In this document: positions 128-21,444 of the stretch, in pieces
Layout: every line of letters starts with the position of its first letter
Numbering within the stretch: position 1 is the stretch's first letter
Assembly: GCF_012985225.1 (NCBI RefSeq)
Contig: NZ_JABEKZ010000024.1
Direction: 5' to 3' (one strand)
Length of the DNA: 57,113 bases
Origin: Corallococcus exiguus
GTDB taxonomy: Bacteria > Myxococcota > Myxococcia > Myxococcales > Myxococcaceae
Translations under genes and position numbers: made by a program
Notes under the pieces: generated by a model
Told to the model about the DNA's origin: nothing
Databases searched by the model: none
The model's input: only the letters and a program-made list of their open reading frames with translations

Positions 128-1168
128 ATGCGGCTGAAGGCGATGCTGGACGCAGGCGAAGTCCAGGAGGTGCCGGACCATCCCATTCTGCGGATGCTCG
201 CGGACCCCAACGACTACCTGACGGGCCGCTCCGTCACGAAGCTGGTGCAGGTGTACCTGGACCTTGTCGGCGAGGCCTTCCTGGTGCTGGAGCGTGTGGC
301 GGGTTTCCCGGTGGGCTTCTGGCCGGTGCCGCCTAACCTCGTTACACGGCTACCGGCGCTGGACGTGCCGCGCGACCAGCGGACCTTCAGCGTCGCAGTG
401 GGCGGCGTGACGCGGGAGATTCCGGCTGCGGACGTCCTCCACCTGCGCAACCTGGACCCCGAGGATCCGCTCGGACGCGGCGTCGGCCCTGCCTTCGCGC
501 TGGGGGACGAGCTGGACACGGACGAGTTCGTGGCGCGATTTCTCCGCGCGAGCTTCTGGAACAACATGCTGCCGCCCGCTATCGCGTCCATCGAGGGGCT
601 GACGGACGCGAACAGCTCAGGGGCGAAAGCCTTCAAAGAATCACTGGCCCGCGAGCATCAGGGGCCGGACAAGGCGGGCAAGCTGCTGCTCACCAGCGGC
701 CGGGTGACGTTCGCCCGCCTCGACACGAGCTTCCGCGACATGCAGTTGGTGGAGCTGCGGAAGTTCCTCATGGGCTTCATTCGGATGACGTTCAGAGTGC
801 CACCCGAAATCGTGGGCGACATCTCAAGCTCGAACAAGGCGACGGCCTTCGCGGCACGGGAGAACCTCGCCGAGCAGGCGACATTCCCGCGCATGGAGTT
901 CCTCCGCACCGAGTACCAGATGCGGCTGATGCCACTGTTCGGCGAGGCGGAGGCCATCCTCGACTACGACAGCCCCGTGCCTGCGGACCGCGAGCACCAG
1001 CTGCGAGTCATGAGCACCATGCCGGAGGCCTTCAGCTACGACGAGTGGCGGGATCTGGCGGGATTTAAGCCGGACCCCCAACGACAGGGCTATCCTCTGC
1101 CAATGCCCGGGCAATCATCAAGAGAGGAAACGCCCGCTAGTAATGGTAGTCCATGGGAGTTGCGCTGA
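128..1168 (+). CDS. Phage portal protein, HK97 family
   Basis: 346 aa. The region ILRMLADPNDYL...LVQVYLDLVGEAFLVLER...GFPVGFWPVPPNLV...LHLRNLDPEDPLGRGVG fits the conserved core of HK97-type portals. An in-frame stop at 116-118 rules out an upstream extension. It sits directly ahead of the protease and capsid genes. Confidence 0.65.
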   Translation: MRLKAMLDAGEVQEVPDHPILRMLADPNDYLTGRSVTKLVQVYLDLVGEAFLVLERVAGFPVGFWPVPPNLVTRLPALDVPRDQRTFSVAVGGVTREIPAADVLHLRNLDPEDPLGRGVGPAFALGDELDTDEFVARFLRASFWNNMLPPAIASIEGLTDANSSGAKAFKESLAREHQGPDKAGKLLLTSGRVTFARLDTSFRDMQLVELRKFLMGFIRMTFRVPPEIVGDISSSNKATAFAARENLAEQATFPRMEFLRTEYQMRLMPLFGEAEAILDYDSPVPADREHQLRVMSTMPEAFSYDEWRDLAGFKPDPQRQGYPLPMPGQSSREETPASNGSPWELR

Positions 1169-1218
1169 TGGCGATTTGTTTGGATGGCCCATCCTGGCAA
1201 TGAGCTGTGGCGGCGGTG

Positions 1219-2487
1219 TTAGTCATTGTCAATGCCCATGAGTTTCTTTCGTCTTCCGACAGATGTTTTTCTCTCGAAATTCGCAACAAACGCAATAGAG
1301 CTTCCGGCGTCGTTCTTTTTTTGAGCCCACAGGTCGACAATCGTTTTGACAACCTGGGCTCCCTCCTTGGCGGCACCGACCAGTGAGCCAACAAGAAGCA
1401 GGTGCCACGGGTTTGCGTTTGGAATGACATTGCCCGTGAGAGTCGCAATGCCACCGCCCAGCGCGATATTTGTTGCGTGTGCGGCCAGTTGGCCAAACAG
1501 CTTCTGATATGTTGCCGTTAGCTGTCTGTCGTACTGGGCGAGGGATGGATTTAGTTTGCCGTGGATATATTTTGTCACCTCGAGTCTCGTCTGTTCGCTC
1601 CAGGGGTTGTCTTTTAGGAGGGATGCGAATCCGGTTATATCTTCGGAGACATATCTGTGTCGTGCCTCCTCCATTGCCGACCTGTACCGTATGATTTCAT
1701 CGGCGGCGCAAAGAGTGAGCGCGCCCTTGGCGAAGATCTCATTTGATACCGAGAAGGCGACCTCTCCGATTCTTGTCCTTAGCTCGACTTCAGCGAGAGC
1801 ACTCGGTTGGTACTGGTTTAGTATGTCCAAGCCCAGCTTGTATTGTTCGTATTTGTATTTGAGCGCCGCGCGATGATCGGGGCTGTGGAATATTGGAATA
1901 GATGAGAAATGGTCCGAAGCTATCAGGGTGCCGGTTATCGATTTTGAAACTTCCACTGCGGGCGGATCGGCAACCGTGTGTAGCATTATGTCCGCAGGTG
2001 GTTCCGTCTGCGTCCGGATCGTAATGGCCCCCGTGAGCTTCAGCAAATCGTAGTCGGCTGGCTTGGTTCTGCATATCTTGTTGAATTCCTTGTCCTTGAT
2101 GTCGCCCGAGATAATTGCGAATTTGGCGTTATTGATGTCTTCGGGTGTTCGAGGCTGTTGGGTTGACTTCAGAATACCGGCCTCTTTGAGGGCGTGGACG
2201 GTTTCTCTGAACTCTGAGTCCTTAAAGCCTGATAGCGGAAATGAGAGCGACTCTTCTGTGTCTCGAAAATAGTTGAACTTGGATGCGTTAACCCTCTCGC
2301 CGTTTGGGGTTTGAATTGTGTTGTTTTTGATAAATGAGTCTTTTATTGTGTTTAGTGTTGGCGGCGTGATGTAGATCTCGTCGAAGAGCAGGGCGAGCCG
2401 TTTAATCGTCTGCGTCAATTCTGGCGAGTTGCCCTCGCCTCTGTCGGTTATTGTCAGATTGGCTCTTAGTGGTGTAGTGCGTGGCAT
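1219..2487 (-). CDS. Hypothetical 422-aa protein. It is a low-GC, opposite-strand insertion (moron) between the portal and protease genes
   Basis: Long ORF on the minus strand in a clearly AT-richer stretch (~50% GC against ~68% around it). No recognisable motifs. The C-terminal part is hydrophobic (LLLVGSLVGAAKEGAQVV). Confidence 0.5.
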   Translation of the reverse strand: MPRTTPLRANLTITDRGEGNSPELTQTIKRLALLFDEIYITPPTLNTIKDSFIKNNTIQTPNGERVNASKFNYFRDTEESLSFPLSGFKDSEFRETVHALKEAGILKSTQQPRTPEDINNAKFAIISGDIKDKEFNKICRTKPADYDLLKLTGAITIRTQTEPPADIMLHTVADPPAVEVSKSITGTLIASDHFSSIPIFHSPDHRAALKYKYEQYKLGLDILNQYQPSALAEVELRTRIGEVAFSVSNEIFAKGALTLCAADEIIRYRSAMEEARHRYVSEDITGFASLLKDNPWSEQTRLEVTKYIHGKLNPSLAQYDRQLTATYQKLFGQLAAHATNIALGGGIATLTGNVIPNANPWHLLLVGSLVGAAKEGAQVVKTIVDLWAQKKNDAGSSIAFVANFERKTSVGRRKKLMGIDND

Positions 2488-2617
2488 GGTATGGCAGTAG
2501 TTGAGTGGAAGAGTGCGATGCTAGCAGGGGTCGACGGGCCATGTCTTCGAGGAGGAGGGGGCTGGCTGCTTTACGACAATACTCCGCGCTCGCAGAACGC
2601 CCCCATTGAAGAGGTGA

Positions 2618-3304
2618 ATGCGCAAGCCTCTTCAGCGAGCCCGCCGTCTTGTCGCCCAGAAGGACGCCCCTGTTCCGGCTAAGGGCCAGCCAAAGGTCTT
2701 CACCTTCCGGGCAAACGACGCAGACTTCGACCGCTACAACGATCGCCTGTCCGTCCAGGGTTGGCGGCTCGACGCCTACTCCGCCAACCCCGTCATCCTC
2801 TACATGCACGACGACGGCTCGGGCGGGCTGTTCGGCGCGGGCCGCACGGATGTGCTGCCCATCGGCAAGGGCCGCGCCTACGTCCAGGGCGACGCCCTTC
2901 TGGTGGACATTGAGTTCGACCAGGACGACGAATTTGCTCGGCGCGTCGAGTCCAAGGTGGAGAAGGGCATCCTCAACGCGGTGAGCGTGCGTTACCGCAT
3001 GCTGCGCTACCACGAGAACGAGCGCGGTGGTTACGACTGCGACGAGCAGGAGCTTCTCGAAATTTCCGTCGTCACGATTCCCGGCAACCAGCGCGCGGTG
3101 CGGCTGAAGAAGCACGCCGACGAACGCGCCGCCCTCATTCGCGACATCGCGGACGCGGTGGTGAAGGCGCTTGGCCGCAAGGCGCGGAAGAAGGGCAAGG
3201 CTGCGCCGCCCGCCGCACCTCCCTCCCTTTCCGAGTCCGACACCCATGCCCTTGCCGCTCACACGGCCCGGGCCCTGTTGCAGCACCTCCAGGAGAAGGC
3301 ATGA
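2618..3304 (+). CDS. Prohead (maturation) protease, HK97 family, S78/U35-like
   Basis: FTFRANDADFDRYNDRLSVQGWRLDAYSANPVILYMHDD...ISVVTIPGNQRAV matches the HK97 prohead protease pattern. Its stop overlaps the capsid ATG (ATGA at 3301). The exact start is uncertain. Confidence 0.65.
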   Translation: MRKPLQRARRLVAQKDAPVPAKGQPKVFTFRANDADFDRYNDRLSVQGWRLDAYSANPVILYMHDDGSGGLFGAGRTDVLPIGKGRAYVQGDALLVDIEFDQDDEFARRVESKVEKGILNAVSVRYRMLRYHENERGGYDCDEQELLEISVVTIPGNQRAVRLKKHADERAALIRDIADAVVKALGRKARKKGKAAPPAAPPSLSESDTHALAAHTARALLQHLQEKA

Positions 3305-4524
3305 CCCCCGAGCAGATGCAGGAGATGGCGAAGTCGCTGGGCCCGCTGGTGGCCGCGCAGTTGGTGGAGCAGTCCAAGGGGCACCGCGACAGCTACGCGG
3401 CCCTGTTGGGCTCCAAGGTGCCCGACGCCGTGCCCGAGGAGCCCCGCCGCTCGCCGATTACTGGCAAGCACATGACGGAAGGCACGGGCCTTAACCTCAT
3501 CCGTTTCGTGAAGGCGAAGGCTGTCGCGCGCATGGAAGGGCGCAACGTGGTGGATGTGCTGAAGAGCTGGGGCGACGAGGTGGTGAGCAAGGCCCTTTCT
3601 CAGGGCAACTACTCGGGCCTGGGCTCGCTGGTGCATCCCCAGTTTGCCTCTGAGTTCATCGAACTGCTGCGCAACAAGGCCGTGGTGCGGCAGGCCGGCG
3701 CCCGCGTCATCCCCATCGGCGCCTCGCTCACCTTCGACCGGCAGTCCAGCACGGGCACGGCCTTCTACGGCGGAGAGACGAGCACCATCCAGGAGTCGGA
3801 GCCGGGCACGGACACGGTGTCCCTGTCCGAGAAGAAGCTCACGGCGCTGACGGCGGTGCCAAACGACCTCATCCGCAATGCGTCCGTCAACGCCGAGGAG
3901 TTCATCCGCAACGACCTGCTGAACGTCATGGCGCTGCGGGAGGGCATGGCCTTCCTGCGGGGCAGCGGGACGCAGCTGGAGCCGCGCGGCATCCGCAACC
4001 AGGTGGACGCGGCCCACGTCTACGCGGAGACGGTGGCCACGGCGGGCGCGCCCACGCTGGGCGAAATGAAGAAGGAGCTGAACAAGGCGAAGAAGAAGCT
4101 GAAAAAGGCCAACGTGCCCATGGTGCAGCCGGTGTGGCTGATGTCCCCCAACGCGGAGACGGCCATTCTCGATGCTCCGGGGCCTGGCGGAGAGGGGACC
4201 AACGCCCTGGAGCGGGAGATGGTGGAGCGCGGCACGCTGCGCAACGTGCCCTTCTTCGTCACGAACCAAATTCCGGAGACGCTCGGCTCGGGCAAGAACT
4301 GCTCGGAGCTCTACCTCGTGGACATGGCCGAGGTGCTTATCGGCGAGTCCATGGCGCTGGAAATCGACGTCTTCCCTAACGGCGCCTTCACGCGTGGCGG
4401 CCAGGTGGTGTCCGGCATCTCCACGGACCAGACGGTGCTGCGCGCCATCACCAAGCATGACCTGGCCATGCGCCACCGGCAGTCCGGCGTCGTGGTGAAG
4501 GACCTGAGCTGGGGCAGCAACTGA
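3301..4524 (+). CDS. Major capsid protein, HK97 fold
   Basis: 407 aa. It follows the protease directly, and its size and sequence pattern fit HK97-family major capsid proteins. Confidence 0.8.
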   Translation: MTPEQMQEMAKSLGPLVAAQLVEQSKGHRDSYAALLGSKVPDAVPEEPRRSPITGKHMTEGTGLNLIRFVKAKAVARMEGRNVVDVLKSWGDEVVSKALSQGNYSGLGSLVHPQFASEFIELLRNKAVVRQAGARVIPIGASLTFDRQSSTGTAFYGGETSTIQESEPGTDTVSLSEKKLTALTAVPNDLIRNASVNAEEFIRNDLLNVMALREGMAFLRGSGTQLEPRGIRNQVDAAHVYAETVATAGAPTLGEMKKELNKAKKKLKKANVPMVQPVWLMSPNAETAILDAPGPGGEGTNALEREMVERGTLRNVPFFVTNQIPETLGSGKNCSELYLVDMAEVLIGESMALEIDVFPNGAFTRGGQVVSGISTDQTVLRAITKHDLAMRHRQSGVVVKDLSWGSN

Positions 4525-4991: not shown

Positions 4992-5651
4992 ATGGCGCAT
5001 CCTGCTGACCTGTGCCTGGCTGCGACCGTGGCGGATGACCTGGGCGTGGCGGTGACGCCGCGCCTGGAGTCCCTCGTCACGGCGGCGAGCCGGGCCGTTG
5101 CTGGCTACTGCGGCCGGGTCTTCGAGTACGGCCAGGGCCTCGTGGAGTACCCGGCGGGCTACGGGCGCCCATTGCTGCTGCTGGAGCGCCCGCCCGTTGT
5201 GCTGGTGGTAAGCGTCTGGGAGGGTGGTGCCTTCGTGCCGGCCGAGGAGTACGAGAGCCACGGGAAGCTGGCGGATGCCGGCATGCTGTACCGCAGGCGC
5301 GGTGTGTGGCCGGAGACGGCACGCTCGGGCGGCCTGGTGGTGGAGGCGGTAGACAGCTTCCAGGGCAGCGAGGACAGCATCCGCGTCGTCTACGATGGCG
5401 GCTTCGTGACGCCGGGGCAGCGAGCCCTGGGCGCGTCGCGCGTGGTGACGCTGCCGGAAGACGTGCAGGAGGCCACCGTCCACACGGCGGTGCAGCTGTA
5501 TCGCTCGCGCGGCGTGGACGCCATGGTGGCCAGCGAGTCCATCGGGGATTGGTCCGTGAGCTACTTCGCCGCGAAGACCGAGGGAAAGAGCCCCATCCTT
5601 GACGTCGCGCAGGCGTTGCTCGCGCCCTTCGTCATTCATCGGGTGAGCTGA
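4992..5651 (+). CDS. Head-tail connector protein, gp6-like, with an extra C-terminal region
   Basis: The N-terminal stretch DLCLAATVADDLGV...LVTAASRAVAGYCGRVF fits the gp6-like connector pattern. At 219 aa it is about twice the usual size. Confidence 0.5.
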   Translation: MAHPADLCLAATVADDLGVAVTPRLESLVTAASRAVAGYCGRVFEYGQGLVEYPAGYGRPLLLLERPPVVLVVSVWEGGAFVPAEEYESHGKLADAGMLYRRRGVWPETARSGGLVVEAVDSFQGSEDSIRVVYDGGFVTPGQRALGASRVVTLPEDVQEATVHTAVQLYRSRGVDAMVASESIGDWSVSYFAAKTEGKSPILDVAQALLAPFVIHRVS

Positions 5652-5974
5652 TGGCCTCGCCTTCGGACACCTTCCGTCAGTCGATCACGTATGCCGTGTT
5701 GACGGGACGGGACGCCTACGGCAAGCCGGCGCTCGGGCCCCAGGCGACGGCGCGGGCTCGTGTGCAGCCGTCCCGACGTCTCATCCGTGATGCCAACGGC
5801 AACGAGCATCTGGCGGCGCACGTTGTCTACACGGACGCGGTTCTCACGTTGCAGCATCGCGTGTGGCTGCCGGGGGAGGACGTGGCGGACTTCAACCGCG
5901 CGCGGCGCCCCGTAGCTGTGGACGAGAGCGTGGACGGCTCAGGCACCGTGCGCTTTCGGAAGGTGTGGTTCTGA
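5651..5974 (+). CDS. Head closure / head-tail adaptor protein
   Basis: 107 aa. Its position and the pattern ...DAYGKP...ARVQP...VYTDAVLTLQHRVWL are consistent with SPP1 gp16-like head closure proteins. Its start overlaps the previous stop. Confidence 0.5.
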   Translation: MASPSDTFRQSITYAVLTGRDAYGKPALGPQATARARVQPSRRLIRDANGNEHLAAHVVYTDAVLTLQHRVWLPGEDVADFNRARRPVAVDESVDGSGTVRFRKVWF

Positions 5975-6402
5975 TGCGGGACATCGCTTCGGAACTAGCA
6001 ATGCTGCTAGAGGGAGCCGAGCTGGGCCTCGTGCGTCCTCCAGGTCCGGGCGCCAACCTCTTCACTTCACCAATGCCTGAGGAGGAGGGCGACGTGCCGG
6101 ACCGGGCCGTGGCTTTGGTGGTGTCTGGGGGCGCTAGGCCACAGCCCTACCTGGGGCTACGGCGTGCCGCATACTTTGTGACGAGTTGTCAGGTTCGCGT
6201 CCGCTCCGCGCGAGAGGATTTCGGTGGTGGGCAACTGCTCGCCAATGCTGTCTTCGCCGTCCTTGAGCAAGCGTGCGTAACGCCCGGTGTTAGTCGGTCC
6301 GAAGAGGGTGCTCCTGTCTATTTTGGGTCCGACGGATCGGATAGATATATTTGGAGTATGAATTTTACTGTTGGGAACAGATGGATGCCAGGAGTCCGCT
6401 AG
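5974..6402 (+). CDS. Putative neck / tail-completion protein
   Basis: ATG at 5974 overlaps the upstream TGA. The stretch LFTSPMPEE..DVPDRAVALVVSGG resembles minor neck proteins of siphoviruses. Confidence 0.4.
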   Translation: MRDIASELAMLLEGAELGLVRPPGPGANLFTSPMPEEEGDVPDRAVALVVSGGARPQPYLGLRRAAYFVTSCQVRVRSAREDFGGGQLLANAVFAVLEQACVTPGVSRSEEGAPVYFGSDGSDRYIWSMNFTVGNRWMPGVR

Positions 6403-6532
6403 TGTCATGAGAAGGGCTCCTGGCGCTTTGCGACAATCGCCACAAATGGTGCCCATGCGGCAGGATGAGTTTGTCGCAATGGGTTGCGGCTATTTCTTGT
6501 GCTTTGTGAGGCCTAGAGAGGGTCTTGGTTTT

Positions 6533-7330
6533 TTATTTCGGAGGATTCTCGTTGGGGCCGCCGATGCTGTCCGGAAGTAGAGTCCGTGCAACTTCAAAGC
6601 CTCCCTTTAGCACTTTGCGGTTGACGGGGTTCGATGCCCAACGGGCAAATCTGACGAAAATTGCAGCCACCACGCCCTTTGCTTTTAGTGAGTCGACCTG
6701 GGCTTTCAATGCAGAGAATTCACGGGTGAGCTTGTCGATTTGGTCCTTGGCTTCAGATTTATCTTTGGTCGATGTGGCAATGTTTTCTTTGAGGGATGTT
6801 TCGACTGCATCAAGCCTAGACTTCAGTGCGTCCGCTTGTTCTATGGAGAGGTAGTCGTCGGTGATGTTGGCATAAGATTCGAGTATGTTCTGGAGTTCTT
6901 GCTCTTGCTTTCGGGCAGCGCGTGCAGCCGGTGCCGCGCGCAGCTCGCCCTCTAGGTGATTCAGCCAGCTTGAAATGGCGGAGAGTAATCCATCTTTATT
7001 TGCGACAGACATGCTTTCCGAGATGTTGATTTCGCCTGGAGACATGTCAAGATCGATGCGGAAAAAGGAGCCATCGTTGTTGCTGATTTTTTTGTTTGGT
7101 ATGTTTGCGGTGAGTCGAAATTTGCTTTCGTGGGCGTATTCGATTGTTAGTTTGCTGTCTCCGAATACGGACTGTTCGAAAGTTGTCTTGAAGTCGCCAC
7201 GGTCGAAATAGGAGCCACGGGAAAGGACCTCTGAAATCTCGTTGATTAGCTGGTGGCGCATGGGGGGTGTACGGGCAGGTTCGTTGTGGCGCTGTCGGAA
7301 CAGCATGATCTCCGAAGTTGTTGCCCCCAT
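6533..7330 (-). CDS. Hypothetical 265-aa coiled-coil protein. It is a second low-GC, opposite-strand moron
   Basis: Minus-strand ORF in an AT-richer island (~6400-7330). The central part is heptad-like (ELQNILESY...LKSRLDAVETSLKEN...IDKLTREFSALKAQVDSLKAKG). The start is uncertain, with alternatives at 7306 and 7261. Confidence 0.45.
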   Translation of the reverse strand: MGATTSEIMLFRQRHNEPARTPPMRHQLINEISEVLSRGSYFDRGDFKTTFEQSVFGDSKLTIEYAHESKFRLTANIPNKKISNNDGSFFRIDLDMSPGEINISESMSVANKDGLLSAISSWLNHLEGELRAAPAARAARKQEQELQNILESYANITDDYLSIEQADALKSRLDAVETSLKENIATSTKDKSEAKDQIDKLTREFSALKAQVDSLKAKGVVAAIFVRFARWASNPVNRKVLKGGFEVARTLLPDSIGGPNENPPK

Positions 7331-7341
7331 TTAAGTGGGGG

Positions 7342-7743
7342 ATGCCTGTTCGAGTCAAAGCCGATACGGTGAAGCTGGAGCGCCTGCGCCGCTCTCCCGT
7401 CGAGGTGCTGCGCGAGCTAGACGGCCCATGCCGGGACATCGCCCGCCTTGCCCTGGACTACTCCCTCTTCCTCGTTCCGGTGGGAGAGGGCCATCTGCGC
7501 GATAGCGCCTTCCTGAGTGGCCCGCTTCACAACCTGAGCCAGCGCCTCTCCACGACGTGGACGGCGGGCTACGTGCACCCGTCCGCAGGCCCCATTCACG
7601 AGGGCTGGCACTGGGGCGCGCAGCTCTTCAACCCGCCACCGCACTTCCTTCGCAAGTCGTTCCGCCGTGCCCGTGGCAGCGCTCGCCGCCGCGTGGCCGC
7701 CGTCCTGAAGGACTTCCTCGCGCAGCGCTTCCCATCCCAATGA
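7342..7743 (+). CDS. HK97 gp10-like tail/head-tail component
   Basis: VPVGEGHLRDSAF matches the gp10-family vPvdTG.LrrS motif. ATG at 7342 is in frame with the track ORF 7318. Confidence 0.5.
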   Translation: MPVRVKADTVKLERLRRSPVEVLRELDGPCRDIARLALDYSLFLVPVGEGHLRDSAFLSGPLHNLSQRLSTTWTAGYVHPSAGPIHEGWHWGAQLFNPPPHFLRKSFRRARGSARRRVAAVLKDFLAQRFPSQ

Positions 7744-8806: not shown

Positions 8807-11488
8807 ATGGCCGGAGGCCTGCGCGTAGGCGACTTGTATGTGGCGGTGACGGCCTCCGTGGGCGAGGCCCTGGCCAACCTCGGCAAGGTGGTGGAGGCCG
8901 TCGAGAAGGCCGCCAAGCAGGTGAAGGAAAAGTCCAAGGGGCTGGGCGAGATTGGCGCGGCGGTGGCGGCGGGGATTGCCGGCGCCGTCGCGGCGGCGTC
9001 CAAGTCCAATGCGGCCATGGAGCGCGAGACGGAGCGGATGACGGCGCTCCTCTACACGCTGGCGGCGGACGTCGGCGACGCCTTCCTGCCGGTGGTGCAG
9101 CACGTCGCGGACGGTGTCGAGCGTGTGGTGGCGAGCTTCCAGTCCCTCTCTCCGGAGATGAAGGCCGCCGCCTCGGACGTGCTCGTGTGGGTGGCTGGGG
9201 CGGGCCTCGCGGCTGGAGCGCTGGGGAAAGTGGCGAACGTTGTGGAAGGCGTGGCCACGGGCGCGGGCGGGCTGGTGAAGGTGCTGGGCCTGCTCAACAA
9301 GTCCGTCGGCCTGGCCTCCCTGGCGACCTCCATGGACAAGGTGACGGCCTCGATGGGCGGCATGGTGGCCAGCACGCCGTCCGTCACTGGCAGCCTGGGA
9401 CGCTTGGCCCTCTCCACCGGAAGCCTGCTGGTGCCGCTCGCGGCGGTGGCCGCTGCCGTGGCGGCGCTGGTGCTGCTGGCGGGTAGCGTCTACGCGGCCT
9501 GGGAGGACAGCAGCACGGGCCTCGCAGACTTCTTCCGGGACTTGGGCGACCAGCTGGCGAAGTGGGCGGGCCGCATCGCGGACGGCTTCTCCCGGGCCTT
9601 CCTGGCGCTGGGTGACTTCGTGAAGGGAGCGGCCCTCTCCGTCCTAGACGGCGTCGCGGCCCTGGTTCGCGGCGTCTCCCGCCTCCTGGAGCCCGTGGCG
9701 CGGCAGGCGGGCTTCCCGGAGCTGGCCGCCACCTTCCGGCAGGTGTCCACCATCACGGGCCGAGAGCTGCTGGAGACGCTGGGGCAGGGCGCCCAGGTGC
9801 TTTGGGATGGCGCGCGGCAGACGGCAGTTGCGGTGGGCGACGCCGTGGCCGGCGCGGGGCGGGAGCTGGAAGAGAGCGTCGCCTACGGCCTGCGCACCAG
9901 TGCGGCGGGTGCGAAGCGGCTCGGGGCGGACCTCGCCCGGGCCCTCAACCTGGAGGGCGTCACGTCGCAGATTCAGGCCCTCCTGGCGAAGCTGGCGGGT
10001 GGGGGTGGGGCACAGGGCAAGGCGCGCATCCGCAAGCCCACGGACAAGGCCGCGCTGGAGGCCGCCCAGAAACAGGAAGCGGCGGAGCAGGCCGCCATGG
10101 CGAAGCTCCAAACCCAGGCCAACGAGGAGTCGCGCAAGGAGTACCTGGCCAGCATCCGCGCGGAGGAGGCCGCCGGCGCCGCCGCATTCCACGAGATGCG
10201 CCTGGAGGCCGAGAGCCTCGCCGCTGAAGCGGAAGCGGCCATGGAAGCCGCGAGGGAGTCGCTGGTGGACCGCTTCATCGGCGGCCTGGGCCAGCTGGGC
10301 GACCTCATCAACGCGGGCATCCAGGGCATGGAGGCAGGCGGTGTCTACGGCGCCATCATCGCCGTGGTGGGCGAGTTGCTCATGCAGTCCGAGGGCTTCA
10401 AGGGCGTCATCGAGTCCGTCAACACGCTCATCCAGAAGGTGGCCGACTCGCTGGGCACACTGCTGGAGCCGCTCCAGCCCCTGCTCAACGCGGTGACGAT
10501 GGTGGTGGACGGCTTTCTCTCCGCCCTGACACCCGTCTTCGAGATGCTGGGGGAGGCGATTGAACCGCTGGTGCCGCCGCTGGTGATGCTGGGCGACATC
10601 GTGAAGGGCCTGGCGCCCCTTTTCGAGGTGCTGGGCCGCACCTTCCTGCTGATTCAGCAGCCGCTCAGCATCCTGGGCGGGCCCATCATGAAGGCCCTTT
10701 TCACGGCGCTGAAGTTCGTCGGCAGCGTCGTCCTCACCATCGCGAAGGCCATCAGCGAAGTCTGGAATGCCGTCATCGGCGCGGTGCAGACCGTCATCCG
10801 CGCCATCTCCAGCCTCATCGACTGGACGGGCTTCGACGGGCTGAAGAAGTTCGCGCGCTCGCTCAACAAGCTGAAGGTGGACACCGACAGCATGGACGAC
10901 TCCCTGCGCGTGCTGGAGGACACGACGTGGGACTCGGCGAAGGCGCGTGCCGAGGAAACCGCCCAGGTGGAGGAGCACACGGAGGCCGTGGCCCGCGCGA
11001 CGGCAGCACTCACCAACGTGCCGACCGCGTGGAAGGTGGCGCTGCGCCGCTTCGAGTCCGAGGACACGCAGGACGGCCCCACGGTGCCGCCCAAGCCGAA
11101 GCCCACGCCCGGGTCCGACGACAACGACGAGGCGGAGGCATCTGACGGCCCCACCTCGCCCAGCGGGCCAGTGCCGGGTTGGCTCTTCGGCATGTTCCCG
11201 CCCGAGCTCCAGCAAATCCTCTTGGGGCAGGTGCCCGCGATGCCTGCGGCGCCGGGTTGGTTCGGCAGCTACCTGCCTCCTGGCTTCAGCGGAGGAGGGC
11301 AGGTGCGTGCGCCCGAGGCGGGCAACGTCTCCGCCATGGCCGCGCCCGTCACCTACAACATCACCGGCTACGACATCGACGCCGCCATGGAAGCGACGCG
11401 GCGGGACGAGTCGCTGCGCCAGCAGCGTGCGAGCATCCGCGTTGCTGGCAGCCGCGTGCGCCTCACGGCGCGCTTCTCTGGCTCTTGA
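8807..11488 (+). CDS. Tail tape measure protein
   Basis: 893 aa. It is Ala/Gly/Leu-rich and strongly helical, with long coiled-coil stretches, and sits after the G/GT pair. Confidence 0.8.
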   Translation: MAGGLRVGDLYVAVTASVGEALANLGKVVEAVEKAAKQVKEKSKGLGEIGAAVAAGIAGAVAAASKSNAAMERETERMTALLYTLAADVGDAFLPVVQHVADGVERVVASFQSLSPEMKAAASDVLVWVAGAGLAAGALGKVANVVEGVATGAGGLVKVLGLLNKSVGLASLATSMDKVTASMGGMVASTPSVTGSLGRLALSTGSLLVPLAAVAAAVAALVLLAGSVYAAWEDSSTGLADFFRDLGDQLAKWAGRIADGFSRAFLALGDFVKGAALSVLDGVAALVRGVSRLLEPVARQAGFPELAATFRQVSTITGRELLETLGQGAQVLWDGARQTAVAVGDAVAGAGRELEESVAYGLRTSAAGAKRLGADLARALNLEGVTSQIQALLAKLAGGGGAQGKARIRKPTDKAALEAAQKQEAAEQAAMAKLQTQANEESRKEYLASIRAEEAAGAAAFHEMRLEAESLAAEAEAAMEAARESLVDRFIGGLGQLGDLINAGIQGMEAGGVYGAIIAVVGELLMQSEGFKGVIESVNTLIQKVADSLGTLLEPLQPLLNAVTMVVDGFLSALTPVFEMLGEAIEPLVPPLVMLGDIVKGLAPLFEVLGRTFLLIQQPLSILGGPIMKALFTALKFVGSVVLTIAKAISEVWNAVIGAVQTVIRAISSLIDWTGFDGLKKFARSLNKLKVDTDSMDDSLRVLEDTTWDSAKARAEETAQVEEHTEAVARATAALTNVPTAWKVALRRFESEDTQDGPTVPPKPKPTPGSDDNDEAEASDGPTSPSGPVPGWLFGMFPPELQQILLGQVPAMPAAPGWFGSYLPPGFSGGGQVRAPEAGNVSAMAAPVTYNITGYDIDAAMEATRRDESLRQQRASIRVAGSRVRLTARFSGS

Positions 11489-12318: not shown

Positions 12319-14721
12319 ATGCGGCCCCTCTCTTCCTTCCAGGCGGCCCTGCTGGGCAGCCCTTCCGGCTACTCCACCCACCCGCGCGTCTGGGTACGCG
12401 ACGCGGCAGGGGCGTGGCGCGGCCTGCACACCCTCCTGGGCTTTGACTGGGTGCTGGGCGTGCGCATCAACGACAAGATGGACGCGCCCGTGGCCGAAGC
12501 GGAGGTGTCGCTGGTGCGCAGCGGCGCCGCTGGAGCACGCCTCTCCCTCTCGCCCCTGGTGGTGCAGTCCCTCGCCAACACCTCCGACGCGGGCACCTTC
12601 GCGCCGCTGCTGGTGGAGGGCGCCTATTTCCGCGTGGAGCTGGGCCTCGCGCCGCTCGCCACCGCGCCGAAAGAGGCGGACTACTTCGAGGTCTTCCGGG
12701 GCCGCATCGATGAGGTGGACGCCGGGCCCGACGAGCTGCGCGTCGTAGGCCGCGACTTGGGCGGGCTGCTGCAGGACACCTTCATCGAGGTGGAGCGCGA
12801 ATACGGCAATGACACGGTGGGCGTGGCCGTGCAGACCATCATCCAGGCGCTGTTGGACGACAACGGCCTCGCCCCCTTCGCACTCTTCACGCCTGTGGAC
12901 CCCATGTCCCAGCGCGGCCGGTACGTGCAGAAAGTGGAGCCGGTGCTGGATGCGGCGCGCACCCTAGCTCAGCGGATTGGCTGGGACTGCCGCATGCGCT
13001 GGCAGCCTGCCGCGAGCGCCTACGCGCTGACGCTCTCCGCGCCCAACCGCCTCCAGACGGAGGAAGACTGGAGCTATGGCCCGGACGAGTACGGCAACCT
13101 CGATGGTGTGACGCGGCAGTTGGCGGACATCCGCACGGACGTAGAGGTCGTCTACAGCGACAAGTTTGACTTGGATGCCTCGGGCACGCCGAATCGAAAG
13201 ACGGTGACGGCCAGCAACCCCACGGCTCGGGCCCAGGTGGGCCGCCGCTGGATGCAGGTAGCGGAGGAGTCCTCCAGCAACATCGACACGCAGGCCGAAG
13301 CCCAGCGACTCGCGGACGCGGCCATCGCGGACCTCTCCGTCTCGCCTCTCACTGTCACCATGGCGGTGGACCCTCACCCCGGCCTGGAGCTGGCGGACCT
13401 GGTGCTCGTGCTGCCGGACGGCGTGCGCCTCGACACGGCGCAGCGGCTCGCGGTGCAAGAGCTGGAGCACCAGTGCGCGACGGATGGCACCGCGCGCATG
13501 AAGCTGGTGCTGCGTGGCCAGCCCTCCACGTCGCTGCGTGAGTGGCTGGAGCGCGACAGCCGGCCGGGCATCGCCCCCAGCGCAACCTTCACGGGCCCGG
13601 CCGCGCCGCAGGAGGTGCGGGCGACGCCGACCGTAAATGGATGCTTGGTGACGTGGACCCCCGCGACTACCGGCCCGGCCTGGGACGAGTACGAGGTGCA
13701 CGCGTCTCGAACGCCGGGCTTCCAGCCCTCGGAGGCCACCTTCCAGGGGAGGGCGTCTGCGACGCGCTTCCTGCTTTCCGAGTTGCGTCCCGGCGCCACC
13801 TACTACTGCCGGGTGGTGGGCCGCGACGCCACGGGCAACCTGGGCGCGCCATCCGCCGAGGTGTCAGTCACCACGGCCTACGTGACACCCGCCACGTTGC
13901 AGCCCGCCGTGGCCTTCGGGGAGTCGCCACCCAACCCCGACTTCGAGGCGCACTCGTTCGAGGAGCTGCCGCCGGACGCCTGGACGATGGGCGCTGGACT
14001 CTGGGGTGCGCACGCTCAGGTGACGGCGGACGCGTACACGGGCGCGCGAGCTGTCCGGCTGGTGGCGAGCGGCACGCGGCTGGACTCCCAGGCGATGATT
14101 GCGCGGCCAGGTGACAGGTACAGCGTGGATGCCCTGGCAAGAGCGTCGCAGACAGGGACGGCATTCTCCGTCCAACTTGTCTGGTACGGCGGCGCCTTCA
14201 ACGTGTTGGGTACGGTGAGCACGACGAAGGTGCTTCCGACGAGCGACTGGGCGCCATTCACCGGCTTCCACAACGCGCCTGCCGGGACGCGCTACGTCCA
14301 GGTGCGCCTGCTGGCCCAGGCGACGCAAGGCGCGCCGTGGGTGTACGTCGATTCGGTGCGCTTGGACCGCATTGGCGGCCTCGTCGAGCCGTGGACGGCC
14401 ATTCGCACCGGGCAGATTAGCGACCTGGAGAATGGCTGGGTGGCGTGGGATGCCTCCAACTGGCCCCTGGGCTTCTACAAGAACAGCGACAACGAGGTGT
14501 CCGCACGCGGCCTCATCCGCCCTGGGACGGTGGGCTACGTGAACGCGTACCGCTTCCCGGTGGGCTACCGGGCCAGCTCCAACCGCATCCTGTCACTGCC
14601 GACGAGCCACGGCTTCGCCATGGGGCAGCTCAACGTGGATGGGGGCCTCCAGGTCTTCAGCATGCCCACGGGCGCGGCCTGGGTGAGCCTCGACGGAGTG
14701 CGATTCCGCGCGGAAGGGTGA
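12319..14721 (+). CDS. Tail fibre / host-specificity protein with a fibronectin type III domain
   Basis: 800 aa. An FN3-like segment (...VTWTPATTGPAWDEYEVHASRTPGF...LRPGATYYCRVVGRDATGNLGAPS) is followed by a C-terminal domain that looks like a carbohydrate-binding domain. Confidence 0.55.
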   Translation: MRPLSSFQAALLGSPSGYSTHPRVWVRDAAGAWRGLHTLLGFDWVLGVRINDKMDAPVAEAEVSLVRSGAAGARLSLSPLVVQSLANTSDAGTFAPLLVEGAYFRVELGLAPLATAPKEADYFEVFRGRIDEVDAGPDELRVVGRDLGGLLQDTFIEVEREYGNDTVGVAVQTIIQALLDDNGLAPFALFTPVDPMSQRGRYVQKVEPVLDAARTLAQRIGWDCRMRWQPAASAYALTLSAPNRLQTEEDWSYGPDEYGNLDGVTRQLADIRTDVEVVYSDKFDLDASGTPNRKTVTASNPTARAQVGRRWMQVAEESSSNIDTQAEAQRLADAAIADLSVSPLTVTMAVDPHPGLELADLVLVLPDGVRLDTAQRLAVQELEHQCATDGTARMKLVLRGQPSTSLREWLERDSRPGIAPSATFTGPAAPQEVRATPTVNGCLVTWTPATTGPAWDEYEVHASRTPGFQPSEATFQGRASATRFLLSELRPGATYYCRVVGRDATGNLGAPSAEVSVTTAYVTPATLQPAVAFGESPPNPDFEAHSFEELPPDAWTMGAGLWGAHAQVTADAYTGARAVRLVASGTRLDSQAMIARPGDRYSVDALARASQTGTAFSVQLVWYGGAFNVLGTVSTTKVLPTSDWAPFTGFHNAPAGTRYVQVRLLAQATQGAPWVYVDSVRLDRIGGLVEPWTAIRTGQISDLENGWVAWDASNWPLGFYKNSDNEVSARGLIRPGTVGYVNAYRFPVGYRASSNRILSLPTSHGFAMGQLNVDGGLQVFSMPTGAAWVSLDGVRFRAEG

Positions 14722-14761
14722 CGCACGCCGCACGTCAAAATCCGCCCCCATTCAGTGGGGG

Positions 14762-15328
14762 ATGATTCCCAATCCTGAACTCTTCTCCCGTCTCGATTTG
14801 AAGTCCCTCTATCCGCCCTTCCAGGCGGTGATGGGGGAAGTCATCGCCCGTTGCCGTGCACGCGGCGCGGACTACGTCGCCACGCGCGGCTACGCCACCT
14901 TCGCCGAGCAGCGCGTGCTGCACCTGCGCTACCTGAAGGGGGAGGGTGGCCGTGCGGCTCCGGAAGGACTCTCCGCGCACAACTACGGCCTGGCGAACGA
15001 CTTCTGCCGCGATGGCGATGTGGACCGGCCTGGGCTCCAGCCGCGCTGGGACGGGCCGGCCTACGCCATTCTCGGCGAGGAGACGCGCCGCGCGGGCTTG
15101 GCTTGGGGTGGCTCCTTCGGGGATGCGCCGCACTGTCAGTGGCCCGGCCTCGTGAGCGGCAGCCAGCTGGAGCCCGTGCGCGGCCTCTTCCTCTCGGAGC
15201 CAGCGGGCAGCACGGACGCGCAGCGGCTCGCCGCCGTCTGGCGCTTCCTCGACACGCTGCGCTCGATGCCGGAGTGGCGCGCCATGCACCCGGCGCTCGC
15301 CGCCTCGCTGGCGCGGCTCGGCTTCTGA
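14762..15328 (+). CDS. Endolysin, peptidase M15 (VanY / L-Ala-D-Glu peptidase-like)
   Basis: SAHNYGLANDF matches the SxHxxGxAxD motif, and a ...GDAPHCQW metal-ligand-like segment follows. It occupies the lysis-cassette position after the fibre gene. Confidence 0.55.
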   Translation: MIPNPELFSRLDLKSLYPPFQAVMGEVIARCRARGADYVATRGYATFAEQRVLHLRYLKGEGGRAAPEGLSAHNYGLANDFCRDGDVDRPGLQPRWDGPAYAILGEETRRAGLAWGGSFGDAPHCQWPGLVSGSQLEPVRGLFLSEPAGSTDAQRLAAVWRFLDTLRSMPEWRAMHPALAASLARLGF

Positions 15329-16271: not shown

Positions 16272-17441
16272 ATGCCCGACACGACAACTGACGACCTGGC
16301 GCGCACCGAAGCCTCCGCGCTCCGCAGGCAGCTTCCGCCGACGCCTGAGAGGCCGCTGCACCTATTCACCATCGACGGCATCCGCTACGAGGCCGTCCGC
16401 GAACTGGTGCTGATGGAGACGGGTGAGGTGCTGATGCTGGCCCATCGCTTCTCAGAGCGCGGCAACAAGCTGGCCGGCCATTGCTTCGTGCGGCGGCTGG
16501 CGAACCCCTCCACCTTCATGCAGCGCACGCGGCTGGGGGAGGAGATTCAGCTGGCCTTCCGTCTGCGCCACCCGGCCATCGCCACCGTGTTTCACCGCAA
16601 GGTGCACAAGGGCGCGCTGCACGCCGTCATGGAGTACGTGGACGGCCCCTCGCTGGAGACGCTGGTGAGTGCGGGTGTTGCGCGCGGCCGGCCCGTCTCC
16701 GAGGCCTTCGCCCTCTACGTCGGCGCGGAACTCGCGGAGGCCCTGCATCACGCACACACGCTGACGGACGCGGACGGCAAGGCGCTGGGCGTCATCCACC
16801 GCGACGTCAACCCCCGGCACGTCTACGTGGGGACGCAGGGCGAGGTGAAGCTGACGAACTTCGGCGCGGCGTACTCGCTGGTGGTGGGGCGCGAGGAGTC
16901 GCCCGCGAGCCTCGTGCGTGGCGACGTGGCGTATGCCTCGCCGGAGTACCTGACGCGGCAGCCGCTTTCGCCTCGCTCTGACGTCTTCAGCCTGGGCGTG
17001 CTGCTGGTGGAACTCTTCACCGGCAAGCACCTCTTCGACGTGGAGGACGTGCCGCGCCCGCTCAAAGGCATGGTCCGCCTCCAGCCCGAAATCCTCCCTT
17101 CGCTGCCGCTCACGCAGATGCAGGTGCTGCTGGACAGCTTTGGGCCGGAGGACGTCGAGGAGGCCGTGGCCTCACTCTCTCCGGACGTGAAGGCCATGCT
17201 GCATGTCGCGTTGCGCGCCAAACCCGAGGGGCGATTCGCCACGGCGGCGGACATGCGCGATGCGATGCGCGTTGCCCTGGCGAGGCGGCACCCTGGCTAC
17301 GGCCGGCAGGAAGCCGCAGCGGAATGGGCCCAGGTGCTGGCGGAGGGCAGCGTCCTTCGCGATGAGGTGGAGTTCGGCGAGGAGCGCTTCTTCCCCGAGG
17401 GGCTGGAGGCTCACGAGTTGGAGGGCTTGAAGCGGGAGTAG
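16272..17441 (+). CDS. Ser/Thr protein kinase-like protein, predicted pseudokinase
   Basis: Kinase fold with HRDVNPRH and APE-like SPEYL. The VAIK lysine is missing (FVRRL), DFG is replaced by NFG, the catalytic-loop Asn is His, and the Gly loop is degenerate. Confidence 0.6.
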   Translation: MPDTTTDDLARTEASALRRQLPPTPERPLHLFTIDGIRYEAVRELVLMETGEVLMLAHRFSERGNKLAGHCFVRRLANPSTFMQRTRLGEEIQLAFRLRHPAIATVFHRKVHKGALHAVMEYVDGPSLETLVSAGVARGRPVSEAFALYVGAELAEALHHAHTLTDADGKALGVIHRDVNPRHVYVGTQGEVKLTNFGAAYSLVVGREESPASLVRGDVAYASPEYLTRQPLSPRSDVFSLGVLLVELFTGKHLFDVEDVPRPLKGMVRLQPEILPSLPLTQMQVLLDSFGPEDVEEAVASLSPDVKAMLHVALRAKPEGRFATAADMRDAMRVALARRHPGYGRQEAAAEWAQVLAEGSVLRDEVEFGEERFFPEGLEAHELEGLKRE

Positions 17442-18371: not shown

Positions 18372-20219
18372 ATGATGCGGGGGCCACCTCCGGCCGTGCT
18401 GTCTCCTGGGGCCCAGGTGCTGGGCTACACGGTGGAGCGCCAGCTGGGGCAGGGCGGCTTCGGCACGGTGTACCTCGCGCGCTGCGAGGGCCAGCGCTTC
18501 GCCCTGAAGCTGCTGCACCTGCCGCGCGTAGGAGAGAGGGCGGAGCGCGAAGTTTCCATCCTCACCCGCCTTCACCATCCCAACGTGGTGCGGATTCTGG
18601 GCCATGGCTACTGGCCGGTGGCCCAGCCGCAATTCATCGTCATCGCTACGGAGTACGTGGAAGGGCGTCAGCTGGACGCGTGGGCCGACGCGGAGAACCC
18701 CACGGCGCGGCAGGTGACGCGCGTGCTGCTGGGCGTGGCACGGGCGCTCGCAGCTGCCCACGCGGATGGGGTGGTGCACCGGGACGTGAAGGAGGCCAAC
18801 GTCATGGTGCGAGCCTCGGACGGCCTGGCCAAGCTGGTGGACTTCGGCATCGGCGACTACGCGGGCGCGCGCGAGCTGACGGCGGACATCCTCCCTCCCG
18901 GGACGGTGGACTACCGCTCCCCGGAGGCGTGGCGCTTCCTGCGTGCTCACCTTGAGGCAAGGGACGCCCGTTACACAGCGGGGCCTGCGGACGACTTGTG
19001 GGCGCTGGGGCTTGTCTCTTACCGGCTGCTGACGGGGCGCTTCCCTTTTGACGGCGAGGACGGCGCCAGCTTGACGGAGGCGATTCTCTCCAGCGAACCC
19101 ACGCCGCCGCACGAGGAGAACGAGCGCGTGCCTCGGGCGCTGAGCGATGTGTGCCTGGGGCTATTGGAGAAGACCCCCGAGGCGCGCACGCCCAGCGCCC
19201 AGGTGCTCTGCGAGTCGCTGGAGCAGGCGCTGCGCGGTGCGGACGAGACGTGGGACGTGCCGCTCTGCGACGCCTACGACGAGGATTCCGCGACGACGGA
19301 GGGGGAGGACATCGACAGCTTCGAGCAGTGGCGGCACCAACCCCGACACCGCCCGCGTCGCGGCAAACGCATTCCCCAGAAACAGGTGCCAGCGGAGGAC
19401 GCGGCTGCTGCGGATGAGACACCGCCGCCCGCGACGACCGTGCGTGTGACGCCTGCGCAGCGTGGGGCCTTCCGCGCCTGGGCGGCGCTCGCGGTGGTGC
19501 TCGTCCTGTCAGGGGCGGCGTGGGGCCTCGGGATGTCGCGCGTCGCAGGGCCAGTCCCCACCCGTCAGGAAGTAGCGCCCTCTGGCAAGTCGTCTCAAGC
19601 TGACCGCGCCGCAGCTCCCACCGGGCCGGAGGCCACCGCTGCGGCCGTCGCTCTCCCCGCGACGCTCCAGGAGGTTTCAGCCACCGTGACGACGCAGCCG
19701 AAAGAGACGCAGCCCCTTCAGTTCCCCTCGAAGCCCGCGAAGAAGGGCATGAGCGTCATGGCCCGTGCTGTCGGCACGGCGGCGGCATGCACGGCGCTCG
19801 CGTGCCCAGGGCCGCAAGTGCGTCCGGCACCTCCTCCGGAGCCGTGCCCAAAGGGTGCTGTGAAGGCCATGGCGAAGCTGGGCATCGACATTGGAGACAG
19901 GCACGAAGCCGTTTTCACCCGTGACCGCCCGCAATTCATTTCTGTTCGGGAAGGCCCTGCCCAGGTGTTCTTGTACGGCGATTGGGAGGAAATGCCGCAC
20001 GGGACAGTTCTGTCTGGTCGGCTAATCGTGCGAGACCGCGTTTACGGGCGACTCACCTCGGCGACTACGCCAAAGGGCGAGAGTTTTCCTGTCTGCCTGG
20101 AGGTCTACGACGTGAAAGACGGGGAACGAGGAATGGCACGCGAGCCCGGAAACGACTCACCTTCCAATGGCCGTATCTTCACGAGCGAATACGTGAGGGC
20201 GGTGAGCGAGTTTGAGTAA
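18372..20219 (+). CDS. Ser/Thr protein kinase, catalytically competent, with a transmembrane segment and a C-terminal extracytoplasmic domain
   Basis: GQGGFGTVY, FALK, HRDVKEANV, DFG and SPE motifs are all present. A Pro/acidic linker leads to a transmembrane helix (AWAALAVVLVLSGAAWGLGM) and a ~200-aa C-terminal domain. Confidence 0.8.
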   Translation: MMRGPPPAVLSPGAQVLGYTVERQLGQGGFGTVYLARCEGQRFALKLLHLPRVGERAEREVSILTRLHHPNVVRILGHGYWPVAQPQFIVIATEYVEGRQLDAWADAENPTARQVTRVLLGVARALAAAHADGVVHRDVKEANVMVRASDGLAKLVDFGIGDYAGARELTADILPPGTVDYRSPEAWRFLRAHLEARDARYTAGPADDLWALGLVSYRLLTGRFPFDGEDGASLTEAILSSEPTPPHEENERVPRALSDVCLGLLEKTPEARTPSAQVLCESLEQALRGADETWDVPLCDAYDEDSATTEGEDIDSFEQWRHQPRHRPRRGKRIPQKQVPAEDAAAADETPPPATTVRVTPAQRGAFRAWAALAVVLVLSGAAWGLGMSRVAGPVPTRQEVAPSGKSSQADRAAAPTGPEATAAAVALPATLQEVSATVTTQPKETQPLQFPSKPAKKGMSVMARAVGTAAACTALACPGPQVRPAPPPEPCPKGAVKAMAKLGIDIGDRHEAVFTRDRPQFISVREGPAQVFLYGDWEEMPHGTVLSGRLIVRDRVYGRLTSATTPKGESFPVCLEVYDVKDGERGMAREPGNDSPSNGRIFTSEYVRAVSEFE

Positions 20220-20245
20220 CAGCACCACCTGGGAGTAATCGCCGA

Positions 20246-21160: not shown

Positions 21161-21303
21161 GGGAGCCCGTTGCTGAGTCCTCGCCGTTGCCTGCTGCGCA
21201 GTAACGCAGCGGTAACGCAGTCGAGTGGACTGGTCTGGACGCGCCTGGACGCAGCAGGGTACGGTATCCACAGGGCAGGTGGGGCGTAACCCCTCGGAAG
21301 TAT

Positions 21304-21402
21304 TGGCGGTAGGGCACGGGAATCGAACTCGCCAGGGACTGCTCTCGCAGCCCCTCACCGGTTTTGAAGACCGGGCCGGCCACCAGGTCCGGAGGCCCTA
21401 CC
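21304..21402 (-). tRNA. selC: tRNA-Sec (selC), anticodon UCA
   Basis: Hand fold of the minus strand gives an 8-bp acceptor stem (GGTAGGGC/GCCCTACC), G73, an encoded CCA, a 7-nt anticodon loop cTTCAaa, a long variable arm (8-bp stem plus GAGA loop) and a T arm (G-TTCGATT-C). This is the bacterial 8/5 Sec geometry. Confidence 0.55.
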
Positions 21403-21444
21403 GCTTCCGATTACCGCCGCTCCGCCCCAGTCCGTCAACCACGG

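Follow-up and report, generated by a model that had tools for sequence, protein, structure and literature searches.

A low-GC antisense gene in an accessory slot of HK97-like Myxococcaceae prophages as a candidate for protection of the lysogen

Why does a low-GC gene lie on the opposite strand among the head and tail genes of a myxobacterial prophage, and what might it do for its carrier? The first ~15 kb of the 57,113-bp Corallococcus exiguus contig analysed here (NZ_JABEKZ010000024.1; the whole stretch is referred to as the window) form an HK97-like siphophage morphogenesis block that is encoded entirely on the plus strand. Within this block, an open reading frame (ORF) at 6533..7330, which is present in the ORF list of the window and encodes 265 amino acids (aa), runs on the minus strand behind the tail terminator gene. 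Judged by sequence comparison, the prophages of this HK97-like Myxococcaceae lineage have two fixed accessory slots, and the gene is horizontally acquired cargo in one of them. Its likeliest role, to which we assign a probability of roughly 0.55 on the basis of its location, would be defence of the lysogen from other phages, through superinfection exclusion or abortive infection. We favour this role because two independent lines of guilt by location point to it, namely the defence-type nature of the recognisable sister cargo and the genomic neighbourhoods of distant homologues.

Two cargo slots in a prophage lineage

The base composition of the ORF (GC 0.51) and of the adjoining spacer at 6403-6532 (GC 0.53) was compared with the window mean of 0.684 (standard deviation 0.052, windows of 300 nucleotides (nt)). 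Just two stretches of the 57 kb, 1001-2600 and 6201-7400, had a 300-nt GC below 0.56, and the GC at third codon positions was 0.56 for the cargo gene versus 0.92 for the capsid gene. The low GC content is real and far from chance. A first-pass annotation made from the sequence alone had described a minus-strand gene of ~50% GC inside a co-oriented, high-GC structural block, and the ORF, the GC values and the annotation of the neighbouring genes confirmed this description.

Related prophages were identified by a search with the capsid protein, with one genome taken per species. The search revealed seven relatives (L001-L007), four from Corallococcus, two from Myxococcus and one from a record labelled Comamonas. 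The blastn synteny with the window was broken at the same two places in all seven relatives, and these places are designated HS1 and HS2 (Table 1). At HS2, the breaks were found at window positions 6143-6267 on the left and 7319-7339 on the right, and from the gene at 7342-7743 onward the nucleotide identity was 75-92% in every relative. The HS2 inserts of the relatives were 823-2275 nt long and had a GC of 0.50-0.55, while that of the 3 kb upstream was 0.66-0.68. The window cargo gene was absent from all seven sister prophages, in which other, unrelated low-GC genes occupied its place on the minus strand. The comparison with orthologous prophages, which the first-pass annotation had itself proposed, thus upholds its view of the gene as foreign accessory cargo and not a structural gene. 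That annotation had also suspected two independent inserts in a hotspot; both inserts do lie at hotspots marked by shared synteny breaks, but these are better described as two conserved slots of the prophage lineage. Its placement of the insert at 6403-7335 was right as to the low GC, but the relatives showed that the foreign segment reaches from ~6243 to 7320 and includes the 3' end of the tail terminator gene. The record labelled Comamonas sp. KCTC 72670 (L005; BNCN01000010.1) contains a prophage with 73-80% nucleotide identity to the myxobacterial ones and flanks of ~67% GC; the record may have been given the wrong organism label or come from a contaminated assembly.

To a large extent, the slots hold unrelated genes. 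Among the eight HS2 cargoes, only the L004 and L007 pair was related (73% identity), and all other pairs lacked a blastp match at 1e-3; at HS1, relatedness was limited to a Shedu-like pair and a partial nuclease-domain match. In addition to this shared position and unrelated cargo, which are typical marks of a hotspot, we found known defence genes in both slots. At HS2, L001 carries a GmrSD_N gene (PADLOC NsnA, 1e-26) together with an FRG-domain gene (PDC-S15, 3e-48). At HS1, we found Shedu SduA in L003 and L004, an Mrr_cat nuclease in L007 and, in L006, a metallophosphoesterase that matched the PADLOC 'Effector' endonuclease model (1e-16). The sole HS2 cargo of both L004 and L007 is a ParA/AAA_31-type ATPase, for which weak PADLOC PDC-M28B matches covered the P-loop only and which may be another single-gene defence candidate. 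By their location, seven further sister cargoes without a Pfam or PADLOC match rank as candidates like the gene studied here (Table 1). The 422-aa protein encoded in HS1 of the window had no match in Pfam, PHROG, PADLOC or NCBIfam.

The main cargo gene was located on the minus strand in all eight prophages at HS2 and likewise in all eight at HS1. At HS2 this holds for every cargo gene, and HS1 of L004 has extra ORFs on the plus strand. With ~14 independent cargo types all in antisense, the rough probability of the pattern under random orientation is 6e-5, and the orientation bias is unlikely to have arisen by chance. The antisense orientation probably shields the cargo from read-through of the late operon, which would make expression in the lysogen possible.

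Table 1. Coordinates of the slots, flanking genes and signals in the window, and of sister cargo in related prophages.
Feature	Sequence	Coordinates	Strand	Remarks
Portal	Window	128-1168	+	
Slot HS1	Window	1115..2598		Between portal and prohead-protease genes; carries the 422-aa gene 1219..2487 (minus strand)
S78 prohead protease	Window	2618-3304	+	
Major capsid protein	Window	3301-4524	+	
Head-tail adaptor	Window	4992-5651	+	
Connector	Window	5651-5974	+	
Tail terminator	Window	5974-6402	+	PF12691, E 1.2e-6
Slot HS2	Window	~6243..7320		From inside the terminator 3' end to the 'gp10-like' gene; GC 0.513; cargo gene 6533..7330
Convergent spacer	Window	6403..6532		Terminator stop to cargo stop; two weak hairpin and U-tract sites in plus orientation, 6473-6490 and 6507-6527
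Conserved core coding sequence of cargo gene	Window	6533..7261	-	242 aa from M24, stop 6533-6535; unnamed ~240-aa family
Possible 15-codon N-terminal extension	Window	7262..7306	-	NCBI start M9; without counterpart in homologues
Boundary element GCCCCCATTTAAG	Window	7323..7335	+	7 nt ahead of the start codon (ATG) of the following tail gene
Hypothetical leftward promoter	Window	7329..7358	-	-35 TTGACT 7353-7358, 18-nt spacer, -10 TTAAAT 7329-7334; read from sequence
Tail-completion/Neck1-like ('gp10-like') gene	Window	7342-7743	+	Right flank of HS2; weak PHROG 5 match, E 5e-4
Major tail protein	Window	ends 8183	+	
Tape measure protein	Window	8807-11488	+	
Distal tail proteins	Window	to ~14.7 kb	+	
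ParA/AAA_31-type ATPase, HS2	L004	13102-14187	-	Sole cargo; 351-361 aa in L004 and L007
ParA/AAA_31-type ATPase, HS2	L007	13045-14100	-	Sole cargo
HS2 cargo without Pfam or PADLOC match	L002	13095-13985		
HS2 cargo without Pfam or PADLOC match	L003	~13111-13790		
HS2 cargo without Pfam or PADLOC match	L005	13075-13788		
HS2 cargo without Pfam or PADLOC match	L006	12999-14150		
HS1 cargo without Pfam or PADLOC match	L001	8069-9097		
HS1 cargo without Pfam or PADLOC match	L002	8288-9223		
HS1 cargo without Pfam or PADLOC match	L005	8161-9297		

No isolated phage had a capsid protein with more than 35% identity to that of the window prophage. Just past the tail genes, we observed two Ser/Thr protein kinase genes on the plus strand (16272-17441 and 18372-20219). 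A tRNA-Sec gene at 21308-21402 on the minus strand (70.5 bits) was the sole Rfam match, and a milder GC dip (~0.60) beside it, at 20000-21500, holds a DUF2381 gene (20246-21160).

The cargo protein, its family and its predicted fold

The first ATG of the ORF (7328-7330) falls within the flank element GCCCCCAT, which was kept in all eight prophages independently of their cargo, and the start of the protein is therefore predicted to be either M9 or M24. The consensus start of the family described below (M-x-R) corresponds to M24-R25 of the window ORF, at position 7261, and residues 2-3 of the homologues align to residues 24-25 of the query. The NCBI annotation starts at M9 (7306), with a GGAG at 7310-7313, 3 nt upstream, and its 257-aa protein (P0001) is identical to ours from M9 on. 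The ORF of 265 aa reported by the first-pass annotation does exist, but from the sequence the actual product is one of 242 aa (from M24) or 257 aa (from M9). At its N-terminus, the protein is not hydrophobic.

A word-indexed protein search, which had returned only the query itself, suggested an orphan, but this status was overturned when 1.84 billion cluster representatives were scanned exhaustively with HMMER. The scan yielded 362 matches at E<=1e-3, 218 at E<=1e-10 and 14 at E<=1e-30, nearly all of them 220-250 aa long and aligned from end to end. The remote-homology search proposed by the first-pass annotation thus recovered a family, albeit an unnamed one: all members are called 'hypothetical protein', barring one 'phasin' label that we took as spurious. 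Examples are MBL8952042.1, from a Myxococcaceae metagenome-assembled genome, and WP_223142483.1 from Aquirufa aurantiipilula. The family is strongly diverged; the closest relative of the window protein shares 37% identity with it, and nearly all 90% clusters are singletons. Fused domains were considered for three longer members (P0042, P0099 and P0035) and rejected, as inspection by eye revealed only low-complexity extensions that are probably miscalled starts.

An alignment of 88 family sequences showed that F24 and W99 are invariant and that D23, P75, G76, E82, P111, E142, L150, L185, W208 and G221 are nearly so; N214 is well conserved (76 of the 88 sequences), and the C-terminal region carries the motif GW..S...R...W..DP.NRKLLKSG. 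The conserved residues are mostly hydrophobic or structural (F, W, P, G, L), with a few charged ones, and no conserved His, Cys or Ser was found in the alignment. A Kyte-Doolittle scan detected no hydrophobic segment of transmembrane grade in any family member. On average, the central helices of the family are acidic (net charge -6.3), while the C-terminal tail is basic (+5.3) and amphipathic.

The AlphaFold 2 (AF2) model, which was built with the 88-sequence alignment, was confident over the entire chain, with a predicted local distance difference test score (pLDDT) of 92.2 and a predicted template modelling score of 0.77. In 242-aa numbering, the model consists of a short helix, a seven-strand β domain (residues 24-87), helices at 88-129 (42 residues), 140-164 and 168-191, and a short C-terminal helical tail. 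The single long central coiled coil read into the sequence by the first-pass annotation is replaced in this model by a helical bundle behind a β-rich N-terminal domain. Because 218 homologous cluster representatives were found at E<=1e-10 and the predicted structure reached this pLDDT, we take the ORF to be a real gene and not a chance ORF. No match above the gathering score was found for the window protein in Pfam, NCBIfam or PHROG, and no consistent family emerged across the 88 members; none of these three databases, nor PADLOC, contains the family. The Pfam matches of the window protein were all below the curated cut-off and confined to the helical region. A sequence profile search of the PDB returned only coiled-coil noise. 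Taken together, the protein is a stand-alone cytoplasmic member of a widespread uncharacterised family.

Slot boundaries, a repeated element and expression signals

On the right, HS2 has a boundary that is precise to the nucleotide. Conservation among the prophages begins at 7321-7323 with GCCCCCATTTAAG and continues through a purine-rich stretch to the ATG at 7342. This element, G(C/T)CCCCAT(T/A)nA(A/G)G, was found at 2599-2611, 7323-7335 and 14744-14756, with no other match in the 57 kb. The copy at 2599-2611 forms the right edge of HS1, before the ATG of the protease gene, and that at 14744-14756 precedes an ORF at 14762-15328. In L001-L007, we found the element at the same junctions and also before a terminase-small-like gene (for example L002 5089, L004 3032, L007 4648); it precedes three or four plus-strand genes per prophage. 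Its CCCCAT core was invariant at 24 of 24 sites in the eight prophages, and in the Myxococcus-clade loci the conservation reaches ~20 nt further upstream (GGaCCAcTCGCGGAAAGC). The element may act as the promoter of a late unit, as a translation signal or as an anchor for recombination. No RNA structure supported by covariation was found at it. Two hairpins, one where the next tail gene starts (z -3.4 in the window) and one where the protease gene starts, were dismissed as conserved RNA structures, since both lack compensatory changes and neither persists in the Myxococcus clade. A shared leaderless start of the cargo genes at the element's invariant minus-strand ATG was also rejected, since this ATG is in frame with the cargo in the window only.

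On the left, HS2 has a gradual boundary. Over its final ~150 nt (~6250-6402), the terminator gene is divergent, with a C-terminus that can still be aligned. In six of the seven loci read in frame, the GC of these last 150 nt was 0.50-0.61 versus 0.57-0.69 upstream; the corresponding values for L007 were 0.68 and 0.69. In L004, the low-GC stretch extends much further into the tail terminator gene. Because the left edge is gradual and the right edge is marked by the element, cargo exchange appears, from these sequences, to rely on the terminator gene at the left and on the repeated element at the right.

In the spacer between the convergent stop codons, hairpin and U-tract sites were about as frequent as expected by chance (3 observed, 2.6 expected), and the fold z-score of the spacer was -0.96. 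An 'insulating' terminator on the convergent side of the slots was not detected consistently among the relatives. At the other end of the cargo gene, the start codon is preceded by just 15-60 nt of cargo-specific DNA, so a promoter would have to overlap the conserved flank. The cargo gene may be driven by such a promoter at the conserved right flank, where the hypothetical TTGACT/TTAAAT pair listed in Table 1 lies. This pair was missed by the consensus promoter scan, which found no sigma-70-like site upstream of the ORF, and no equivalent -35 was present at HS1.

Possible function and relation to known systems

The second line of evidence comes from the homologues in other genomes, which were inspected in ten annotated independent contexts; the sharing of neighbours was compared over twelve. 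The homologues were solitary in all ten annotated contexts, often with an upstream spacer of ~170-400 nt, and their GC was below that of their surroundings in nine of nine contexts measured, in hosts of 32-66% GC. Defence-type neighbours were found in four of the ten annotated contexts. In L015, the homologue lies between a CBASS system (CD-NTase and TIR-STING) and GAPS4. Other homologues were found beside GmrSD_N and HEPN, SLFN/AlbA_2 and IS1595 genes (L010), in an island that also holds a TIR gene and a transposase (L017) and between two IS110 copies with patatin and UvrD genes nearby (L009); in L021, 6.5 kb separate the homologue from a phage portal gene. When 55 neighbours were searched against PADLOC, the models matched were the CBASS cyclase, TIR effector, NsnA, PD-T4-2_A, phospholipase effector, pAgo, TIR-TM, HEC-05/06 and PDC-S35. 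A search with a subfamily alignment revealed ten further loci from metagenomes.

Several results weigh against a defence role. In six of the ten annotated contexts (L008, L013/14, L019, L021, L023 and L024), no recognisable defence neighbour was found, and an association with variable islands and mobile elements is to be expected of non-defence accessory genes too. The window protein had no significant full-length match among the 5027 models of PADLOC-DB v2.0.0, the best (E 4e-4) being confined to coiled-coil parts of the LmuB and DpdH models. The AF2 model had no significant structural match among PDB and BFVD folds, which leaves no analogue to guide a mechanism. Neither the protein nor the insert DNA had a match in INPHARED, and no family member was detected in IMG/VR with the patterns tried. 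Finally, neither the consensus scan nor the relatives revealed a convincing promoter or terminator at the cargo gene.

The gene could instead be accessory cargo of a non-defence kind, for instance a counter-defence factor that assists the phage at entry or induction, a modulator of host physiology or development, or a kin-discrimination factor like those known from myxobacterial prophage-like elements. This alternative is possible but the less probable one. The slots of a prophage can hold any gene of lysogenic conversion, several sister cargoes likewise have no known function, and the protein lacks a catalytic or toxin motif; the six contexts without a defence neighbour also fit this alternative. 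On the other hand, every recognisable cargo in both slots is of the defence type (nucleases, Shedu, FRG), and the homologues are chromosomal, beside CBASS, GAPS4, GmrSD and TIR genes and outside phage genomes, with none in the viral collections searched. The gene also lacks the adjacent immunity or partner gene that a toxin cassette would show.

The remaining explanations are far weaker. A decaying or non-functional remnant moved by recombination is improbable: the window protein has no close relative and no detectable promoter, and a few conserved residues of the family consensus are replaced in it (E142 by Q, W197 by V and K194 by A), but its frame is intact and of full length, both invariant and most of the nearly invariant residues are kept, and the model is confident along the whole chain. 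We consider it highly improbable that the protein helps in morphogenesis, for example as scaffold, chaperone or decoration protein, and is helical by coincidence. Its position amid head and tail genes would suit such a role, as would low-scoring hits to scaffold models (the window protein to phrog_73 at E 0.0046; 11 of the 88 members to PF06810, best E 9e-5), whereas the opposite strand, the foreign composition, the absence from all seven sister prophages and the non-phage contexts of the homologues speak against it. None of the scaffolding models (PF06810, phrog_73, phrog_206) gave a match above threshold, the Pfam matches cover the helical region only and most of the 88 members match no scaffold model; the recognised scaffold or decoration protein that would have contradicted the first-pass annotation thus did not appear, the family giving only sub-threshold coiled-coil noise. 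The same annotation had imagined that the gene and 1219..2487, which encodes the 422-aa product, could work as an effector and sensor pair. In favour of this, both genes are low in GC, on the minus strand, functionally unassigned and 4 kb apart in one prophage. Such a two-gene system is very unlikely and the pairing is dropped, because the slots assort independently: L003 and L004 share the Shedu-like gene at HS1 and differ at HS2, while L004 and L007 share the ParA-like gene at HS2 and differ at HS1. Moreover, a tblastn search with the 422-aa protein over eight loci that carry family homologues, and that represent five distinct genomic contexts, gave no match, and no neighbour gene was common to any two of the twelve contexts compared.

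If the gene protects the lysogen, as we favour, its mode of action can be outlined only conditionally. The absence of conserved catalytic residues and of a partner gene, together with the conserved arrangement of an acidic bundle and a basic tail, suggests a non-enzymatic protein of the binding or switch type. The N-terminal β domain would recognise a phage component, and the acidic helical bundle would hold the basic, Trp-bearing amphipathic C-terminal tail inactive until triggering releases it to act on a membrane or on nucleic acid. This picture of an autoinhibited tail that is freed on phage sensing is speculative. More doubtful still is the joint claim that the ~240-aa family represents a new kind of anti-phage system, which consists of one gene, is non-enzymatic and has a fold unseen in solved structures, and that the lineage keeps two 'plug-in' slots, whose repeated element would serve as a recombination anchor and as a signal restarting late expression after the antisense cargo, and maybe as an aid to cargo expression.

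Temperate phages are well known to have hotspots of defence genes. Those of P2 and P4 were reportedly described by Rousset et al. in 2022 (Cell Host Microbe 30:741), for temperate phages and their satellites. Like the P2 and P4 hotspots, the Myxococcaceae slots have a fixed position between conserved phage genes and hold diverse, unrelated cargo that includes recognised defence systems, and their location can be used to nominate new defence genes. They differ in that they lie inside the head-tail block (between portal and protease genes, and between the tail terminator and the next tail gene), that the main cargo is always antisense, that a short repeated element marks the right edge and that the left junction of HS2 falls within the tail terminator gene; the Myxococcaceae slots are, moreover, known from sequence only. 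The cargo gene also resembles a moron, being an extra gene between structural genes that is absent from relatives, deviant in composition and presumably expressed from the prophage. However, a classical moron has its own promoter and terminator, whereas here we found a weak promoter candidate overlapping the flank, terminator-like sites at chance level that are not conserved, little cargo-specific upstream DNA and an orientation opposite to the operon.

Two further comparisons concern the protein itself. The PADLOC models of the SMC/Rad50-type defence proteins LmuB, JetC and PbeC matched the helical region (residues ~110-220) with E-values of 4e-4 to 8e-3, but the window protein has no ATPase head, is ~240 aa long compared with 600-1100 and is matched by coiled-coil segments only; homology to these proteins was rejected as similarity at the level of composition. 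Tab of Pseudomonas prophages is a single-protein exclusion factor that blocks virion assembly. It offers a possible working analogy, as a small cytoplasmic prophage protein encoded by a solo gene without a catalytic motif that acts by binding; no relation in sequence or fold was found between the two, and the analogy rests solely on the missing catalytic residues.

According to the part available of a 2026 survey (bioRxiv 10.64898/2026.09.14.751636), myxobacterial prophages preferentially carry defence systems, and that part of the survey does not mention the cargo slots of this lineage. What is new here is the lineage with the position of its slots inside the morphogenesis block, the strictly antisense main cargo, the repeated boundary element and the protein family. 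The gene is a well-supported and directly testable candidate, yet one among many such. Hotspots in prophages are a proven route to new immune genes, and HS2 nominates a family with hundreds of diverged members in bacteria of 32-66% GC and a confident predicted fold; if an anti-phage role is true, the family would be a small non-enzymatic system with a new mechanism. Both slots additionally supply a list of further candidates, as about ten unrelated sister cargoes belong to no known family. The slots are a clean case of strictly antisense cargo in a structural operon, which bears on how a prophage can carry genes that benefit its host without disturbing late transcription. As the biology of myxobacterial phages is little explored, the descriptive result is itself new for this group.

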